Translations under genes and position numbers: made by a program | Origin: a virus | Taxonomy: Duplodnaviria; Heunggongvirae; Uroviricota; Caudoviricetes | Virus record (IMG/VR): IMGVR_UViG_2675903253_000012 | DNA: 40,607 nt | Strand: one strand, 5' to 3' | Part shown: positions 7,160 through 40,607 of the stretch, in pieces | Layout of the letters: each line of letters opens with the position of its first letter | Position numbering within the stretch: the first letter of the stretch is position 1 | Notes under the pieces: model-generated | Database searches by the model: none | The model's input: only the letters and a program-made list of their open reading frames with translations | What the model was told of the DNA's origin: nothing

Positions 7160-7311
7160 CTTACTGTGTGCTTCTCCAACCATCGGCGCGCACCAGTTTC
7201 GGTTTTAAATGTTTTGCTTTTGGTATACGTCATGGCAGTGAACGTTCCATCCTGGTTGGGGAACACGCCGCACACCAGGGATTCGTTGTTGCCGAGGTCG
7301 ATTTTTTGCAT
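7156..7311 (-). CDS. ydaF: YdaF-like small protein (DUF1391), 51 aa
   Basis: Hand translation MQKIDLGNNESLVCGVFPNQDGTFTAMTYTKSKTFKTETGARRWLEKHTVS*; convergent 4-nt overlap with sieB stop; conserved Rac position. Confidence 0.55.
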   Translation of the reverse strand: MQKIDLGNNESLVCGVFPNQDGTFTAMTYTKSKTFKTETGARRWLEKHTVS

Positions 7312-11758: not shown

Positions 11759-11894
11759 ACGTTACTAGATCAAAGAGCATTAGTTCATATGTAAATTGAC
11801 ATTTTTCTGGCACAGGGGAGAGCTAGCGTGGTTGTCCGCTTTGTGCCAATAGCGGACATTGCTGGCTCATGGTATGTTAGTTTAAGGAGGCAGG

Positions 11895-11923
11895 TTATGC
11901 CCTGTATTTCGCTGTGGTATAAT
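11895..11923 (+). promoter_or_regulatory. Candidate sigma70 promoter with extended -10 (TGgTATAAT) driving the cargo operon
   Basis: Perfect TATAAT at 11918-11923 preceded by TG at 11915-11916; weak -35 TTATGC at 11895-11900 (17-bp spacer); followed by aggga Shine-Dalgarno and GTG start at 11957. Confidence 0.5.
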
Positions 11924-11956
11924 AGTTGCGCAATTGATACAAGGGAGCGTTACATC

Positions 11957-12919
11957 GTGAAAATTGTTTTCGAGGTTAATGGAAAGAAAGTTCCACTAAA
12001 ATCTTTAAAATACATAAGCAAAAAAGATCAACTCGAAGTAATGAAAAACTGGTTCTTTGAAAACTTTGAAGATCCGGCAAATGCTTGTCCGTATGAAAGT
12101 AGAGAAGGTGGCTATGCTTACATATATGGCGGGCCGTATGATGCGAGCGAAGAACTACAATCCATCTTCGGTCAATATGTTAAATCTGAGTATATTGAGG
12201 AATTAGTAGATGAATTACAAACACAATGTTTTGACTGGTCTGGAAACTCAAATAATATAGATGATTGGTACGATGATGATATCTACGACGCTGTAACGTC
12301 TTCCGGTAATCCGTATTTAAAATTCATTGATAATATCGATAAAATAAAAAAACTTGCAAAAGATAAAACTGAACAACAGCAAAAAAACCACTTGCTTAGT
12401 TTGCTCTACACGAATGTTATTACAGCTTTGGAAACGCTTTATGTTGAGCTATTCATTAATTCTATAGAGAAAGATGATGTCTACATAGCCAATTGTATAG
12501 AAAAAGGTAAGACTGAATTTAAAGTAAGCAAAGATATTGCTGCGTTGCCTTTCAAGGGTGAACCCATCGAGAAAATTAGGGGAGAGCTAATCAGGTCAAT
12601 CAAGGAACACTTGATCAGTGCAAGCTGGCATAGCACTAAAAAGGTAATCGACCGCTATGAAGCTACATTCGATATAAAAGTACAAAAAGACTGTCCGATA
12701 GAAGCTATTGAATTGGCAACCCTCAATCGAAATCACTTAGTGCATCGTGGTGGAAAGGATAAAGAAGGGAACCTCGTAGTGATTACAGACCAGGATCTTG
12801 AAACGCTGATTGAAAATGCATCGAACCTGGCAATTATGCTCTACAACAGTTTAAATGTAGCAACGAATAAAACCACCATTTTGCAACCAGATGACAAACC
12901 GTTCATTCATGAATTTTAA
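11957..12919 (+). CDS. Cargo protein A, about 320 aa, uncharacterised, with C-terminal HEPN-like R-N-x-x-x-H motif (putative RNase); ORF is open from 11828 but the promoter-proximal GTG at 11957 is the likelier start
   Basis: AT-rich ORF; motif LNRNHLVHRGG encoded at 12728-12745 matches the HEPN R[NHQ]xxxH signature near the C-terminus of a predicted helical region; 15-nt spacing to the downstream gene suggests an operon. Confidence 0.6.
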   Translation: MKIVFEVNGKKVPLKSLKYISKKDQLEVMKNWFFENFEDPANACPYESREGGYAYIYGGPYDASEELQSIFGQYVKSEYIEELVDELQTQCFDWSGNSNNIDDWYDDDIYDAVTSSGNPYLKFIDNIDKIKKLAKDKTEQQQKNHLLSLLYTNVITALETLYVELFINSIEKDDVYIANCIEKGKTEFKVSKDIAALPFKGEPIEKIRGELIRSIKEHLISASWHSTKKVIDRYEATFDIKVQKDCPIEAIELATLNRNHLVHRGGKDKEGNLVVITDQDLETLIENASNLAIMLYNSLNVATNKTTILQPDDKPFIHEF

Positions 12920-12934
12920 TAGCGCAGGTCATAC

Positions 12935-13936
12935 ATGGATATTCGCACACGAAAGACAAAATTTTTAGAGTCGTTAGATTCAACTGAAGTGATACGCAAA
13001 GCAGTAAGTCTCGCTATAGATTGCATTATTGATAATCATAATAGTAATGAAGATACCCCCTTAGTTATTACCAGCTATGATGATCTCTGTAGAATCCAGG
13101 TGCTAAATTATGTACAGGAGTTTTGCGAAGCTGCATTCCCTGATATGGATGAATATTACTTTAGTCCTAACATACTTCGCATCAACGGCAAGACTAGTGA
13201 AGAAGCTTGTATTAACTTAATTAAACTCTTAAGAAGTACAAAAGGCATGCTATTCTGGTCCGATGCCCCATCGTGGTTCGCTAGCCTCCCCGACGGATTA
13301 TTCCATGTTGTTAACATTGATCAAAAAATCGTTACTCGCGGCCTTAATAAGAAAAACTCTAAGCCGACAATAATCAATAAAGATTACAGTGTAGATACAC
13401 TACTATCAGAGCTATTTTTGAATGGCGCACACATGGAGCAACCCAACGTACACAACGTTTCTGAGGGAAACATGAAGTTCTATGATGAATGCCATGCTGG
13501 ATTAATCAGACCAATACCCGCTCCAATAGGCGCGTCATACGATGAAGAGATCACAATTAATTCTCCAGATTGGCAAAAGCTCGCGTGTGTAGCTTTACGC
13601 CGCTATCAGTCGAAGGAATGTCATGACGGAATGCAATGGGATACAACCGATCATGGTTGGACTGATGTAATCGCGTATCCATTCGTCGAAGAAATACAAT
13701 CAATGGATAATAGTGGTTATCGACAATGTTTAGTTGGGCTGGTCACAATAAACAATTCAAATGCAAATTCTCCGTACCTATCTACCGTTTGGATACATCC
13801 ATTTTATCGCAGGAGAGGGTTATTAAGTAAGTTATGGCCAAAATTACAAGAGTTATATGGAAGTAACTTCGAAATTGAGCGACCTAATGAAAATATGAAA
13901 GCATTTCTGAAAAGTGCGAAACACGCAGATTACTAA
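12935..13936 (+). CDS. Cargo protein B, 333 aa, uncharacterised partner of protein A
   Basis: AT-rich ORF 15 nt downstream of A on the same strand; no Walker motifs seen; C-terminal segment VWIHPFYRRRGLLSKLW only weakly resembles an acyl-CoA-binding loop. Confidence 0.6.
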   Translation: MDIRTRKTKFLESLDSTEVIRKAVSLAIDCIIDNHNSNEDTPLVITSYDDLCRIQVLNYVQEFCEAAFPDMDEYYFSPNILRINGKTSEEACINLIKLLRSTKGMLFWSDAPSWFASLPDGLFHVVNIDQKIVTRGLNKKNSKPTIINKDYSVDTLLSELFLNGAHMEQPNVHNVSEGNMKFYDECHAGLIRPIPAPIGASYDEEITINSPDWQKLACVALRRYQSKECHDGMQWDTTDHGWTDVIAYPFVEEIQSMDNSGYRQCLVGLVTINNSNANSPYLSTVWIHPFYRRRGLLSKLWPKLQELYGSNFEIERPNENMKAFLKSAKHADY

Positions 13937-14119
13937 TTTATGAATCAGTCTGTGGAGTTAGGGTTGGTGTGAACAAGTAGGGTAAGAGCCTCAACGTGAT
14001 GCTATGCCGACCTGCTCCCTGAGAATTCACACAGAAGGCTGCTAGCAATGTCTGCAGATCGCTCAAAGCGGACTAAAATGTTGGCTTGTTTCTGACTTAG
14101 AGCATTTAAGGAAGTGCTG

Positions 14120-14338
14120 GTGGTGACTGGTTGTTGTGTTCCATTTCTACAGAATAAAATCACAGAAACTATACCCAATAGTTGTATTGAATCACTGACG
14201 AGACAGCCTCATATTTATCAGGACTGGTGTGCGTCTAATACAGGGGGTTGTCGTGCTGGTTCTCAAATGTGCGCTGGCTATTGCGGCTGTAATGGCAATT
14301 TATTGTCTTGCTGTTGTTCTTATGGAGCGGCTTTCTGA
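14120..14338 (+). CDS. Possible small Cys-rich peptide (about 72 aa, 11 Cys), speculative
   Basis: ORF with aagga Shine-Dalgarno 7 nt upstream of GTG 14120; Cys-rich C-terminus ...GGCRAGSQMCAGYCGCNGNLLSCCCSYGAAF; could still be a chance ORF. Confidence 0.25.
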   Translation: MVTGCCVPFLQNKITETIPNSCIESLTRQPHIYQDWCASNTGGCRAGSQMCAGYCGCNGNLLSCCCSYGAAF

Positions 14339-14488
14339 TTGATTACATACTGGCTAGAAAAAAGGTGTTACCTTGGTTTATCTTTGTCCGGCAAGGTGCG
14401 CTCATTAATCTTAAGTAAATTTATTGCTCAAGTATTCAGATTACTTCTTATGGTTGAAGTCTCCTGTCAATGTAGAACCAATATATTT

Positions 14489-14527
14489 ACAAAAATGAGA
14501 CCCGTCGGGGATAGCCCTGCCGGGTCT
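14489..14527 (-). terminator. Rho-independent terminator for the YeaR-like gene
   Basis: Inverted repeat agacccg...cgggtct (14499-14527) followed on the minus strand by a U-run (complement of acaaaaatg), about 30 nt past the stop of the minus-strand gene. Confidence 0.5.
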
Positions 14528-14556
14528 GACTGTTAAAGCATTTTTAATATGATCAT

Positions 14557-14895
14557 CTATTTTTTGGTGCTATAGACTTTTTCGCCCGAAAAGTCTGGAG
14601 CGACCCAAAAGTTAATATTAAACTGAGCATCATCGCTTAGTTCAACACGGTGCCAGTATTGTGGTGGGCTTGTTGCAAAAGCGCCAGCATTAATGACTAC
14701 TTTTATCTCCGGTTCAGTAGCATTCTCATCAGTAAAACCATAATATGTTACAGTGCCTTCCATTACGCACAACTGCCCAAAAACACCTGCTGCTGTATTA
14801 TGATGTGTTAATAACGCTGAAGGTACGTTCTCTTTTGTGAAGAACGGAGTTGAGCGTTTGATTACCCAATCTTTAGGAATTCTCTTGTGTGTCAT
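14557..14895 (-). CDS. YeaR-like DUF1971 (TehB-associated cupin-like) protein, cargo gene
   Basis: Translation MTHKRIPKDWVIKRSTPFFTKENVPSALL...YYGFTDENATEPE...AGAFATSPPQYWHRVE...FNINFWVAPD parallels recalled E. coli YeaR motifs (RSTPF, EP, AG.FA.PP..WH, FNI.FFVAPE). Confidence 0.7.
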   Translation of the reverse strand: MTHKRIPKDWVIKRSTPFFTKENVPSALLTHHNTAAGVFGQLCVMEGTVTYYGFTDENATEPEIKVVINAGAFATSPPQYWHRVELSDDAQFNINFWVAPDFSGEKVYSTKK

Positions 14896-15708
14896 AACCA
14901 CCTCCTCCAAAACATGCATTAAAAATGCATCTTTTGGAGGGTTATGTCAAGCTGTTATGAAACACATAATTGATATGTTGATTAGAGGAGAAGATAGAAT
15001 AAATATGGTTGTTTTTCGTATAACTATTTGTTTTACTTTTAGTTTATGCATTCTGTGTGTTAGGAATAAGTTATTAAAGTTTAATCAAAAAATCTCGATG
15101 TAGTCCACATAGATTACTGTTACTGAACCTTATTGTGTGTATTAGTTGTGTTCTGAAATTTCAGCTTAATTATTTATGATGTATTTTTTAACGATAAATA
15201 TTTTCCCAGGATACCTTTACTGTGTATATAAATAAATTATATACGCATAAATAATGTAAAGGCGTCCTTTTAGATATATCTTATCAAATGTTAATGACTT
15301 GAGTGGGAAATATGATTCCAGCAACTTATCATGTGGCTACTTTATAAAAATAATGCCCATATAAAACAACAAGCGAAAAGGATTACGGATAAAAAAGGAG
15401 CGAGATGTGCGAACTTGTTATTTTCCATGTTTAACCACCTTAAATAATTGATGATGACGGGATGATTGCATCTGTAATGCTTTTATTGAAATGTTATGAT
15501 AAAAAAGAACTTTTGCATAACATTAAAATGTAATTTATCTAATCGTTTTTAATAATAAGTGTCGTATTTCTATCCTTGTACCAGCTATTTGATATGTAGT
15601 GTTTGTTCATGCTATGTGGGGCTTTACACCATAGCCAGTTTATTTATACTTTATTCGTCAGCCTGAACAACTGGCATCTGCTGCGCTGCGCCATCGAGAG
15701 ATTGAGAA

Positions 15709-38183: not shown

Positions 38184-38514
38184 TACGGAAGAATTTCACT
38201 GGTTACCAGAGGATGGAATGAAAACAGAAAATAAACCATCGATAAAAACTGTAAGATTTGGTGATGGTTATGAGCAACGAAGTCCAAATGGACTTAATCA
38301 TTCTCTGCGCGTTTTCACCTGTGATTTCAAAGTTGAGGCGAATGAACGTGATTCATTTGAAAAATTTTTAGCCCGGCATGAAGGCTATAAATCTTTTTTT
38401 TGGCGCCCGCCGGGTATTAACAGAAAAATCAGAGTGGTGTGTCGAACGTGGTCAGCGACAGAACATATCACCTATACCGATTTTTCGTGTCAGTTTGACG
38501 AAGTGGTGATCTGA
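38176..38514 (+). CDS. Minor tail protein M (lambda gpM-like)
   Basis: [16 protein letters not shown]...[16 protein letters not shown] parallels recalled lambda gpM. Confidence 0.85.
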
Positions 38515-39212
38515 TGCAGGACATACAACAGGAAACGCTGAATGAATGCATTCGTGCGGAGCAGTCGGCCAGCGTGGTGCTCTGGGAAATCGACCTGACC
38601 GAGGTAGGCGGGGATCGCTACTTTTTCTGCAATGAGCAGAACGAGAAAGGAGAGTCTGTCACCTGGCAGAGTCGGCAGTATCAGGCCTATCCCATTCAGG
38701 GGAGTGGATTTGAGATGAACGGCAAAGGTGCCAGTGCAAGGCCAACGCTGAAAGTCTCTAATCTGCACGGCATGGTCACCGGGATGGCGGAAGACCTGCA
38801 GAGTCTGGTCGGCGGAACGGTGGTCAGGCGTAAGGTTTACGCCCGTTTTCTGGATGCGGTGAACTTCGTCAACGGAAACAGTGACGCCGATCCGGAGCAG
38901 GAGGTGATCAGCCGCTGGCGTATTGAGCAGTGCAGCGAACTGAGCGCGGTCAGTGCCTCCTTTGTACTGTCCACGCCGACGGAAACGGACGGCGCTGTTT
39001 TTCCGGGGCGCATCATGCTTGCTAATACCTGCACCTGGACCTATCGCGGTGATGAGTGCGGTTATCACGGTCCGGCTGTCGCGGATGAATATGACCAGCC
39101 AACGTCCGACATCACGAAGGATAAATGCAGCAAATGCCTGAGTGGCTGTAAGTTTCGCAATAACGTCGGCAACTTTGGCGGCTTCCTTTCCATTAACAAA
39201 CTTTCGCAGTAA
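38514..39212 (+). CDS. Minor tail protein L (lambda gpL-like)
   Basis: 232-aa ORF with C-terminal Cys cluster, gene order M-L-K-I-J. Confidence 0.85.
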   Translation: MQDIQQETLNECIRAEQSASVVLWEIDLTEVGGDRYFFCNEQNEKGESVTWQSRQYQAYPIQGSGFEMNGKGASARPTLKVSNLHGMVTGMAEDLQSLVGGTVVRRKVYARFLDAVNFVNGNSDADPEQEVISRWRIEQCSELSAVSASFVLSTPTETDGAVFPGRIMLANTCTWTYRGDECGYHGPAVADEYDQPTSDITKDKCSKCLSGCKFRNNVGNFGGFLSINKLSQ

Positions 39213-39217
39213 ATCCC

Positions 39218-39912
39218 ATGACAGAGACAGAATCAGCGATTCTGGCGCACGCCCGGCGATGTGCGCCAGCGGAGTCGTGCGGCTTCGTGGTGAGAACACC
39301 GGAGGGGGAAAGATATTTTCCCTGCGTGAATATTTCCGGTGAGCCGGAGGAGTATTTCCGGATGGCTCCGGAGGACTGGCTGCAGGCAGAGATGCAGGGT
39401 GAGATTGTGGCGCTGGTCCACAGCCACCCCGGTGGTCTGCCCTGGCTGAGTGAGGCCGACCGGCGGCTGCAGGTGCAGAGTGATTTGTCGTGGTGGCTGG
39501 TCTGCCGCGGGGCGATTCACAAGTTCCGCTGTGTGCCGCATCTCACCGGGCGGCGCTTTGAGCACGGGGTGACGGACTGTTACACGCTGTTCCGGGANNN
39601 NNNNNNNNNNNNGGTCAGAATCTCTATCTGGATAATCTGGAGGCCACAGGGCTGTATCAGGTGCCGTTGTCAGCGGCGCAGCCGGGCGATGTGCTGCTGT
39701 GCTGTTTTGGTTCATCGGTGCCGAATCATGCCGCCATTTACTGTGGTGACGGCGAGCTGCTGCACCATATTCCTGAACAACTGAGCAAACGAGAGAGGTA
39801 TACCGACAAATGGCAGCGACGCACACACTCCCTCTGGCGTCACCGGGCATGGCACGCATCTGCCTTTACGGGGATTTGCAACGATTTGGCCGCCGCATCG
39901 ACCTTCGTGTGA
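39218..39912 (+). CDS. Tail assembly protein K (lambda gpK-like; JAB/MPN plus NlpC/P60), interrupted by the N-run
   Basis: N-terminal HSHP motif ALVHSHPGG; C-terminal LCCFGSSVPNHAAIY; the 15-nt N-run at 39598-39612 leaves frame and length across the gap uncertain. Confidence 0.7.
39598..39612. other. Assembly gap (15 N)
   Basis: Run of n characters in the sequence. Confidence 1.
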
Positions 39913-40457
39913 AAACGGGGGCCGAAGCCATCCGGGCACTGGCCACACAGCTCCCGGCATTTCGTCAGAAACTGAGCGACGGCTGGTATCAGGTGCGCAT
40001 TGCCGGGCGTGATGCAGGCGAAAATGAATTATCTGCCCGTCTTAATGAACCGCTGGCAAATGGTGCCGTGATCCACATCGTTCCGCGTCTGGCGGGTGCC
40101 AAAAGTGGCGGTGTGTTTCAGGCGGTGCTGGGTGCGGCGCTGATTGCGGTGGCATGGTGGAACCCTGTGGGCTGGCTGGGGGCCGCGGCTGTATCGGGTA
40201 TGTATGCAGCAGGGGCCAGTATGATCCTGGGTGGTGTGGCGCAGATGCTGGCACCGAAAGCCAGGACGCCCACGGCAGCCAGTACAGATAACGGCAAACA
40301 GAACACGTATTTCTCGTCACTGGATAACATGGTTGCCCAGGGTAATGTTCTGCCTGTTCTGTACGGGGAAATGCGCGTGGGGTCACGTGTGGTTTCTCAG
40401 GAGATCAGCACGGCAGACGAAGGGGACGGTGGTCAGGTTGTGGTGATTGGTCGCTGA
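39810..40457 (+). CDS. Tail assembly protein I (lambda gpI-like)
   Basis: MAATHTLPLASPGMARICLYGDLQRFGRRIDLRVKTGAEAIRALATQ... matches recalled lambda gpI; overlaps 3' end of K. Confidence 0.85.
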   Translation: MAATHTLPLASPGMARICLYGDLQRFGRRIDLRVKTGAEAIRALATQLPAFRQKLSDGWYQVRIAGRDAGENELSARLNEPLANGAVIHIVPRLAGAKSGGVFQAVLGAALIAVAWWNPVGWLGAAAVSGMYAAGASMILGGVAQMLAPKARTPTAASTDNGKQNTYFSSLDNMVAQGNVLPVLYGEMRVGSRVVSQEISTADEGDGGQVVVIGR

Positions 40458-40517
40458 TGCAAAATGTTTTATGAGAAACCGCCTGCGGGCGGTTTTGTCG
40501 TTTATGGAGCGTGAGGA

Positions 40518-40607
40518 ATGGGTAAAGGCAGCAGTAAGGGGCATACCCCGCGCGAAGCGAAGGACAACCTGAAGTCCACGCAGCTGCTGAGTGTGATCGA
40601 TGCCATC
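40518..40607 (+). CDS. Host specificity / central tail fibre protein J, 5' fragment (continues beyond window)
   Basis: MGKGSSKGHTPREAKDNLKSTQLLSVIDAI matches recalled lambda gpJ N-terminus; gtgagga Shine-Dalgarno. Confidence 0.85.
   Translation, partial: MGKGSSKGHTPREAKDNLKSTQLLSVIDAI

Follow-up and report, generated by a model that had tools for sequence, protein, structure and literature searches.

We analysed a stretch of 40,607 nucleotides of viral DNA (IMG/VR record IMGVR_UViG_2675903253_000012; Duplodnaviria; Heunggongvirae; Uroviricota; Caudoviricetes), referred to as the window, and focused on its operon of two genes, here named A and B, that occupies positions 11957 to 13936 on the plus strand. 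The explanation that accounts best for the data as a whole, and in which we place high confidence, is that this operon is the published defence system DS-33, in which A would serve as an infection-activated HEPN effector and B as an accessory protein. Protein A is identical to published DS-33A over all 320 residues (320/320), and RefSeq assigns the window locus the same accession, WP_014639476.1. Protein B, encoded directly downstream after the same 15-nt gap, matches published DS-33B (WP_000354965.1) at 332 of 333 positions. WP_014639476.1 and WP_000354965.1 were validated as DS-33, with the working name “GNAT” and marked as replicated, by DeWeirdt et al. (DefensePredictor, Science 2026, PMC13092281), the main text of which does not discuss DS-33 further. 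An earlier note on this DNA, made from the sequence alone, had proposed an undescribed defence, abortive-infection or toxin-antitoxin module and had named homology to a characterised system as the finding that would speak against novelty. The operon is thus already known, and the defence locus itself is real.

The efficiencies of plating (EOP) in MG1655 considered here are single rows per phage and variant from Table S7 of that paper. Expressed as −log10 EOP, the wild-type operon gave values of 3.78 for T7, 3.30 for T3, 4 for Bas67, 5 for Bas26 and 0.77 for T5, that is, 10³–10⁵-fold protection against the first four phages. With the HEPN gene deleted, the values listed for the same phages in the same order were 0.08, −0.48, 0, 0.52 and 0.54, and with the GNAT gene deleted they were 4.78, 3.30, 4, 5 and 1.73. 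Substitution R258A decreased the value for T7 from 3.78 to 0.78, and 0.37 was listed for T5. In these rows, obtained with a protein identical to that of the window, A alone was shown to be necessary and sufficient for protection against T7, T3, Bas67 and Bas26 and residue R258 to be required, and the GNAT gene was dispensable in the one published test. The phage challenge of the operon that the earlier note had proposed was therefore already performed, and the weight it gave to R258 was justified. Its HEPN assignment and its expectation of a defence function were correct, whereas its alternative of a toxin-antitoxin or two-gene module is not supported, as the GNAT-deleted operon defends.

Both genes were found in 209 of 5426 complete E. 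coli genomes (approximately 4%), for which a confirmed annotation can now replace the label “hypothetical protein” still used by RefSeq. IncF plasmids carry A and B with identical proteins, and a search of the phage GenBank collection revealed no copy of the operon. What makes the locus still of interest is the part played by the GNAT protein, the shared sensor-like domain of A and its C-terminal Phe tail, and the repeat-bounded cassettes in which defence genes are found.

Domain structure of protein A

Gene A (DS-33A, the HEPN nuclease and defence effector; 11957 to 12919, + strand) starts with GTG, and PGAP reports the same coordinates. The longest open reading frame containing the gene (11828 to 12919, +) includes the promoter-like element described below and PGAP does not use its 11828 start; based on the GGGAG Shine-Dalgarno sequence and the PGAP choice, GTG at 11957 is likely the true start. 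Our analysis shows that A begins with a HEPN/RES-NTD1 domain, continues with a four-helix HEPN domain and closes with an acidic, disordered tail whose last residue is Phe. Residues 1-100 (11957 to 12256, +), assigned through alignment, the PF18870 matches of relatives and a sub-threshold match of the window protein, comprise the first domain with the motif WFxxNFEDPxxxxPYESREGGYxYIYGGPYDA, the most conserved stretch of the 55-sequence alignment of the A family. PF18870 was matched by 52 of these 55 members (E ≤ 0.01), and many relatives carry the domain in precomputed annotation. Anantharaman et al. 2013 had already reported, from computational work, this architecture of NTD1 fused to a MAE_28990-superfamily HEPN domain.

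The HEPN domain, of the RiboL-PSP / MAE_28990-superfamily type, spans residues ~140-308 (12374 to 12880, +). The best structural matches of the predicted model of A were all HEPN domains and the model displays the four-helix up-down bundle, in line with the HEPN-like fold that the earlier note had expected a structure search to find. Among the A relatives, 29 of 55 matched PF18735 (RiboL-PSP-HEPN; best E 7.1e-11). The HEPN R[NHQ]xxxH signature read in A beforehand is present as LNRNHLVHRGG, with R258 encoded by CGA at 12728-12730 and H263 by CAT at 12743-12745; the catalytic motif R258-N-H-L-V-H263-R264 (12728 to 12748, +) follows the Rx4-6H pattern of the HEPN superfamily as R258-x4-H263. Residues R258, H263, R264, E159 and W224-H225 are invariant in the 55 aligned sequences, down to 26% identity. 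The C-terminal residues 309-320 (12881 to 12916, +; ...DDKPFIHEF), with a predicted local distance difference test score (pLDDT) below 50, form a disordered tail. A terminal Phe was observed in 81 of 108 full-length A-family proteins (P0001-P0115), mostly after acidic residues (...ESEF, ...EEEF, ...DLPF). In this respect the tails are similar to the acidic tip at the C-terminus of single-stranded-DNA-binding proteins, and the conserved Phe tail offers a concrete handle on the regulation of A.

No function for A was found in PHROGs or RefSeq, and PADLOC, NCBIfam and PHROGs provided no named function. In PADLOC-DB v2.0.0 (2023, which predates DS-33) the matches of A were at chance level (E ≥ 0.009) and B had no match, profile searches of PDB sequences yielded chance matches only, and the homologue search with residues 1-100 of A for other effector fusions returned fragments only. 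Alphaproteobacterial proteins at loci L058-L079 (e.g. L066, 7923-8822, and L069, 7923-8825) have only NTD1 in common with A (40-50% identity); in these proteins NTD1 is followed by a GIGHNNPP motif and then by hydrophobic C-terminal helices, and most of them end in ...PF. Judged from their sequences, they look like a third effector type built on the N-terminal domain of A.

We propose that A would be kept inactive in uninfected cells and that an infection cue, read through its N-terminal domain, would switch it on. Activated A would then cleave RNA, with tRNA or mRNA as the most likely substrate by analogy with other defence HEPN proteins, so that translation would stop and the infection would be aborted. 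Control probably resides in the N-terminal domain, as the same Pfam domain precedes the effector of aRES, a system compared with A in the last section; as the sensor-like domain is common to both, one trigger mechanism may serve two effectors. As other defence HEPN proteins, e.g. DARNA, cut tRNA anticodon loops, tRNA is the first candidate target of A. More broadly, the HEPN/RES-NTD1 domain with an acidic Phe-ending tail may constitute a common switch over different effectors, namely HEPN, RES and the hydrophobic alphaproteobacterial module.

The GNAT protein B and its relation to A

Gene B (12935 to 13936, +; 333 aa, WP_000354966.1) is an allele of DS-33B and encodes an N-terminal family-specific domain followed by a C-terminal GNAT fold. 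The open reading frame coordinates and PGAP agree with the prior description of two co-oriented genes for 320 and 333 aa, with 15 nt between the stop of A and the start of B. The AlphaFold 2 model of B has a pLDDT of 90.6, and residues ~200-333 (13532 to 13933, +) display the GNAT acyl-CoA N-acyltransferase fold, including motif A (beta4, then R/Q-x-x-G-x-G/A) with the sequence LSTVWIHPFYRRRG at 13775-13825. The earlier statement that B has no assignable motif therefore does not apply to its C-terminal half. Inspection of the B alignment by eye gave no evident general-acid Tyr of helix alpha4, which is usual in GNAT proteins. Residues 1-200 are restricted to B-family proteins of ~330 aa, with 21 matches among 1.84 billion representatives. 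We infer that B is a predicted GNAT-fold acyltransferase, accessory to A rather than its obligate partner.

Considering the loci with upstream sequence, B homologues of at least ~73% identity have A directly upstream with the same 15-nt gap (~50 loci), and those of ≤ 68% identity occur without A in every locus that could be judged. Such B genes without A were found in an integrative conjugative element beside TraG/DtrJ-like genes, beside ddrB-ParB and in marine gammaproteobacteria. Two of the solitary B loci have further features: in a Serratia conjugative element (L173, 5001-6445) a 148-aa open reading frame begins ~2 nt after B, and in Marinomonas (L083, 5038-7005) B is divergent from a weakly matching Abi_2 (HEPN-type) gene. 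In ~75 loci, which represent many phyla and extend to relatives as close as 75-77% identity, gene A is solitary. Integrases, transposases, SIR2, RmrA, ResIII and CapP-like genes are among the genes next to it; clustering of the neighbours in ~80 A loci revealed no recurrent partner, and a conserved partner for A was accordingly rejected. In most lineages, A-family genes thus occur by themselves, and the A and B families are not mutually dependent.

Natural knock-outs point in the same direction. Three B-only derivatives (L105, 1422-2682; L154, 7817-9075; L155, 6380-7578) have retained the leader and the terminal ~40-60 nt of A together with an intact B, and their two different junctions imply at least two separate deletions of A. 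In AHB12 (L171) IS1 truncates A and B is intact, in SF-173 (L169) IS1 splits B and A is intact, and in MB56 (L170) A is bracketed by two ISSen4 copies. The solitary A genes, together with knock-outs in both directions, indicate that A functions autonomously and that B does not act as its antidote. A toxin-antitoxin pair, in which A would be a constitutively toxic HEPN RNase neutralised by B through binding or covalent modification, as MntA does for HepT, would suit two adjacent genes on plasmids and prophages and the observation that natural losses of A outnumber those of B. Nevertheless, we regard it as highly improbable: most of the A family is solitary, the GNAT-deleted strain in the published rows was viable enough for plating and defended fully, and SF-173 carries an intact A with a disrupted B, although the N-terminal 187 aa of B survive there. 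The natural and the published knock-outs and the solitary A genes thus largely refute this reading.

The only residue at which B differs from published DS-33B is 289, encoded by CCA at 13799-13801 (+) within GNAT motif A. It is Pro in the window and in 44 of 44 aligned family members and Leu in the experimentally tested allele; the single test of the GNAT gene was thus made with an allele altered at a family-invariant residue. B might therefore already have been inactive in the GNAT-deletion test, and the published result may have compared two inactive states. The GNAT protein may be a regulator, the effect of which was hidden by the P289L allele.

Whether B serves A at all can be answered in two further ways. 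B could be a real functional partner that tunes A, for instance through acetylation of A itself, of the RNA substrate of A or of a phage factor, and it could broaden the set of phages that are sensed or leave the resident prophage unharmed on induction; the published test would have been blind to such an effect owing to the P289L allele and a panel restricted to lytic phages. This is consistent with the strict linkage to A with an unchanged gap in ~50 loci (prophage, integrative mobilisable element and IncF plasmid), with the invariance of P289 and with B staying intact after A was deleted in at least two independent derivatives. A damping role would also fit the slightly higher protection of the GNAT-deleted strain (T7, 4.78 versus 3.78; T5, 1.73 versus 0.77), a weak hint, as these tenfold differences come from single rows per phage and variant. 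However, B is missing beside a close relative of A (77% identity) and beside every distant one, and B at ≤ 68% identity lacks A wherever the upstream sequence allows judging; we therefore consider a functional partnership rather unlikely. Alternatively, B could be an independent cargo gene, with a separate defence, a counter-defence or another benefit to the element, that merely has its promoter and cassette in common with A. Its solitary occurrence in the conjugative element by TraG/DtrJ-like genes, by ddrB-ParB and in marine gammaproteobacteria, the leader retained in B-only cassette derivatives and the absence of any loss of defence upon GNAT deletion in Table S7 argue for this possibility, as does the low log-odds of being a defence gene that the predictor of DeWeirdt et al. 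gives for B (1.08, compared with 9.45 for A; PMC13092281). On the other hand, B alone, with the HEPN gene deleted, gave no protection in the rows for the five phages tested, and we put this possibility forward only tentatively.

The explanation that we prefer, DS-33 with A as the infection-activated effector and an accessory B, has to be weighed against several points. The window A itself scores 22.2 bits (E 1.9e-4) against PF18870, below the gathering cut-off of 27.4 bits, and has no match to PF18735, so that both assignments come from its relatives and from the model. The RNase and abortive-infection steps are drawn by analogy with other defence HEPN proteins. The published GNAT-deletion result was obtained with the P289L allele of B, possibly inactive beforehand. 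Finally, the A-B spacing of 15 nt is unchanged in ~50 loci, down to ~75-83% identity, which fits some functional coupling.

The repeat-bounded cassette and its surroundings

The comparison of loci shows that the operon and its promoter-like leader travel together as a 2.24-kb repeat-bounded unit, which occupies a variable cargo site of lambdoid prophages and also occurs on plasmids. The whole unit, comprising the leader, A, B and a 3' tail, measures 2240 bp (11834 to 14073, +); homology starts at 11833/11834, ends at 14073/14074 and gives way to unrelated flanks in an IncF plasmid, Serratia, other lambdoid prophages and metagenome contigs. The unit is bounded by a left terminal inverted repeat, GTCCGCTTTGTGCCAATAGCGGACATTGCTGGC (11834 to 11866, +), found by repeat search, conserved at the boundary and itself a hairpin with a 7-bp stem, and by a right one (14041 to 14073, − strand; reverse complement GTCCGCTTTGAGCGATCTGCAGACATTGCTAGC), found by repeat and pattern search. 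The arms, GTCCGCTTTG...GACATTGCT, are 33 nt long and imperfect (~26/33 alike), the pattern occurs twice in the window versus 0 times expected, and in at least 8 different, unrelated flanks the repeats coincide with the ends of the homology. Repeat pairs were accepted only with clear arm similarity, as looser matching (3+2 mismatches) gave many spurious pairs. In its termini, present in several contexts, the unit resembles a non-autonomous inverted-repeat element of the mobile insertion cassette or MITE-like type; a target-site duplication was rejected, as none was seen in 9 cassette contexts, and no transposase for the cassette was identified. An integron attC-like site at the 3' end was also rejected, as the core motifs, read by eye, do not fit, and Rfam revealed nothing in or around the cassette.

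The 123-nt leader contains the extended -10 promoter-like element noted before, TGGTATAAT (11915 to 11923, +), which was read from the sequence 34 nt 5' of the GTG start of A. A simple sigma-70 scan does not list it, because it has no good -35. The leader accompanies the operon into unrelated contexts, where the element has the same sequence or reads TGGTACAAT, and it is retained in the B-only derivatives L105 and L154. In Aeromonas caviae (L086-L089) the A-B pair (86% and 79% identity) is located on a relaxase-bearing island beside SIR2 and cREC_REC genes; homology begins there at 11898 and the left repeat is not conserved. In O78 strain 3 (L172) IS2 lies between DUF977 and the cassette.

Repeat-bounded loci in viral contigs carry other cargo. 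Genes Hp1-Hp2-Hp3 of Rst_3HP (best E 5e-41) were found in L175 (3150-6506) and L183 directly after a DUF977 gene, as in the window. With the same flank sequences as the window, L186 (4143-6278) carries a PD-T7-1-like protein (best E 2.8e-69) with a 156-aa open reading frame, and L205 (8671-10495), L217, L218 and L220 carry a 444-aa PDC-S15 protein (best E 6.7e-99). DarT-DarG (best E 7.8e-38 for DarT and 1.9e-79 for DarG) is found in other flanks in L208 (9155-11946), and the cargo of L215 and L221, both viral contigs, had no assignment. Locus L221 (2508-7300) shows apparent tandem units, one of 472 bp with an 80-aa open reading frame followed 18 nt on by one of 4284 bp with four unassigned open reading frames; a third unit starts at 7300, a -10-like element follows each left repeat and the arrangement is reminiscent of cassettes stacked in series. 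Palindromic copies of the repeat that occur singly (CAATGTCCGC...GCGGACATTG hairpins), their arms enclosing no cargo, are present in L180 (11069-11092), L209 (6751-6774), L211 (13070-13093) and L210 (2338-2361), and these may represent unoccupied sites or scars. In other E. coli prophages (L162-L165) the site downstream of DUF977 is occupied by QueH, by hokD, by small open reading frames with a cytosine methyltransferase, or by a DUF4145 gene; the prophage site after DUF977 is thus a variable cargo site.

We tentatively suggest that the 33-nt repeats may delimit a family of small mobile cassettes that carry a promoter and can be stacked; our search of the literature accessible to it found no description of the repeat sequence or of repeat-bounded defence cassettes, which does not prove that there is none. 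If the suggestion holds, these cassettes would shuttle DS-33, Rst_3HP, PD-T7-1, PDC-S15, DarTG and other cargo between the lambdoid-prophage site, plasmids and other elements, and scanning for the repeats would be a route to new defence systems. The repeat cassette would tie five defence systems to one vehicle and point to further cargo.

The window starts at intR of a Rac-type prophage, with xisR, ralR, recET, racC, kilR, sieB and ydaSTUV-like genes also present, and E. coli NCTC10444 is a 99.9% match to it over 25 kb. The operon is preceded by ydaU/ydaV, DUF1627 and DUF977 and followed by DUF1367/DUF1364/DUF1133, which agrees with its previously reported placement between the replication and Q-like modules. 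The reported AT-richness relative to the flanks is confirmed, with a limit on one side: GC is 0.34-0.40 across 12001-14000 versus 0.49-0.54 in the upstream replication genes, but region 14001-15500 downstream is likewise AT-rich (0.29-0.41), so that the contrast is mainly upstream-sided. The AT-rich stretch 14000-15700 (GC 0.29 at 15001-15500) carries a minus-strand DUF1971/TehB-like gene (14557-14895), and ~800 nt with no annotated gene precede DUF1367. A sharp increase in GC, from 0.35-0.53 in the rest of the window to 0.57-0.58 at its right end (38500-40607), may mark a module boundary.

Comparison with known systems

In its architecture, A resembles aRES, which consists of PF18870 and a RES domain, acts stand-alone, is located in defence islands and responds to infection by depleting NAD+ and arresting growth (Osterman et al., bioRxiv 2026, 10.64898/2026.01.28.702374). 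As compared by description rather than by sequence, both place an N-terminal domain of the HEPN/RES-NTD1 family (PF18870, below the Pfam cut-off for the window A) before the effector. The effector of aRES is, however, a RES NAD+ phosphorylase and that of A a HEPN domain; Pfam and structure searches gave no match to a RES domain in A, which is therefore not an aRES member.

PD-T4-2_B, PD-T4-5, PD-T7-3/DARNA and ApeA share the HEPN Pfam type (PF18735) seen in the A relatives, and the HHblits analysis of the DS-33 authors related A to PD-T4-2_B with 96.1% probability over 55% of A (PMC13092281). Nevertheless, none of the PADLOC models of these four matches A even at E ≤ 1, and the domain order and accessory domains of the group are unlike those of A; DARNA, for instance, has an N-terminal HEPN domain and a Pds5-like C-terminal domain. 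HepT of the type VII HEPN-MNT pair HepT/MntA comprises ~130 aa without an N-terminal domain and needs its nucleotidyltransferase antitoxin, whereas A tolerates the loss of B. The prophage HEPN abortive-infection proteins HepS (Gifsy-1) and Tha (S. aureus) have no sequence relationship to A and use other sensing domains; their triggers are tail proteins.

The GNAT toxins of TacAT/AtaRT, which have ~160-175 aa, an adjacent small antitoxin and a location on mobile elements, are similar to B in their fold and in that location. In contrast, B has 333 aa and a unique N-terminal domain, has no antitoxin-like neighbour and occurs alone without signs of toxicity. The closest system is DS-33 itself: gene order and spacing are the same as in the window, and the two differ in that the window B has the family consensus Pro289 and the tested DS-33B has Leu.

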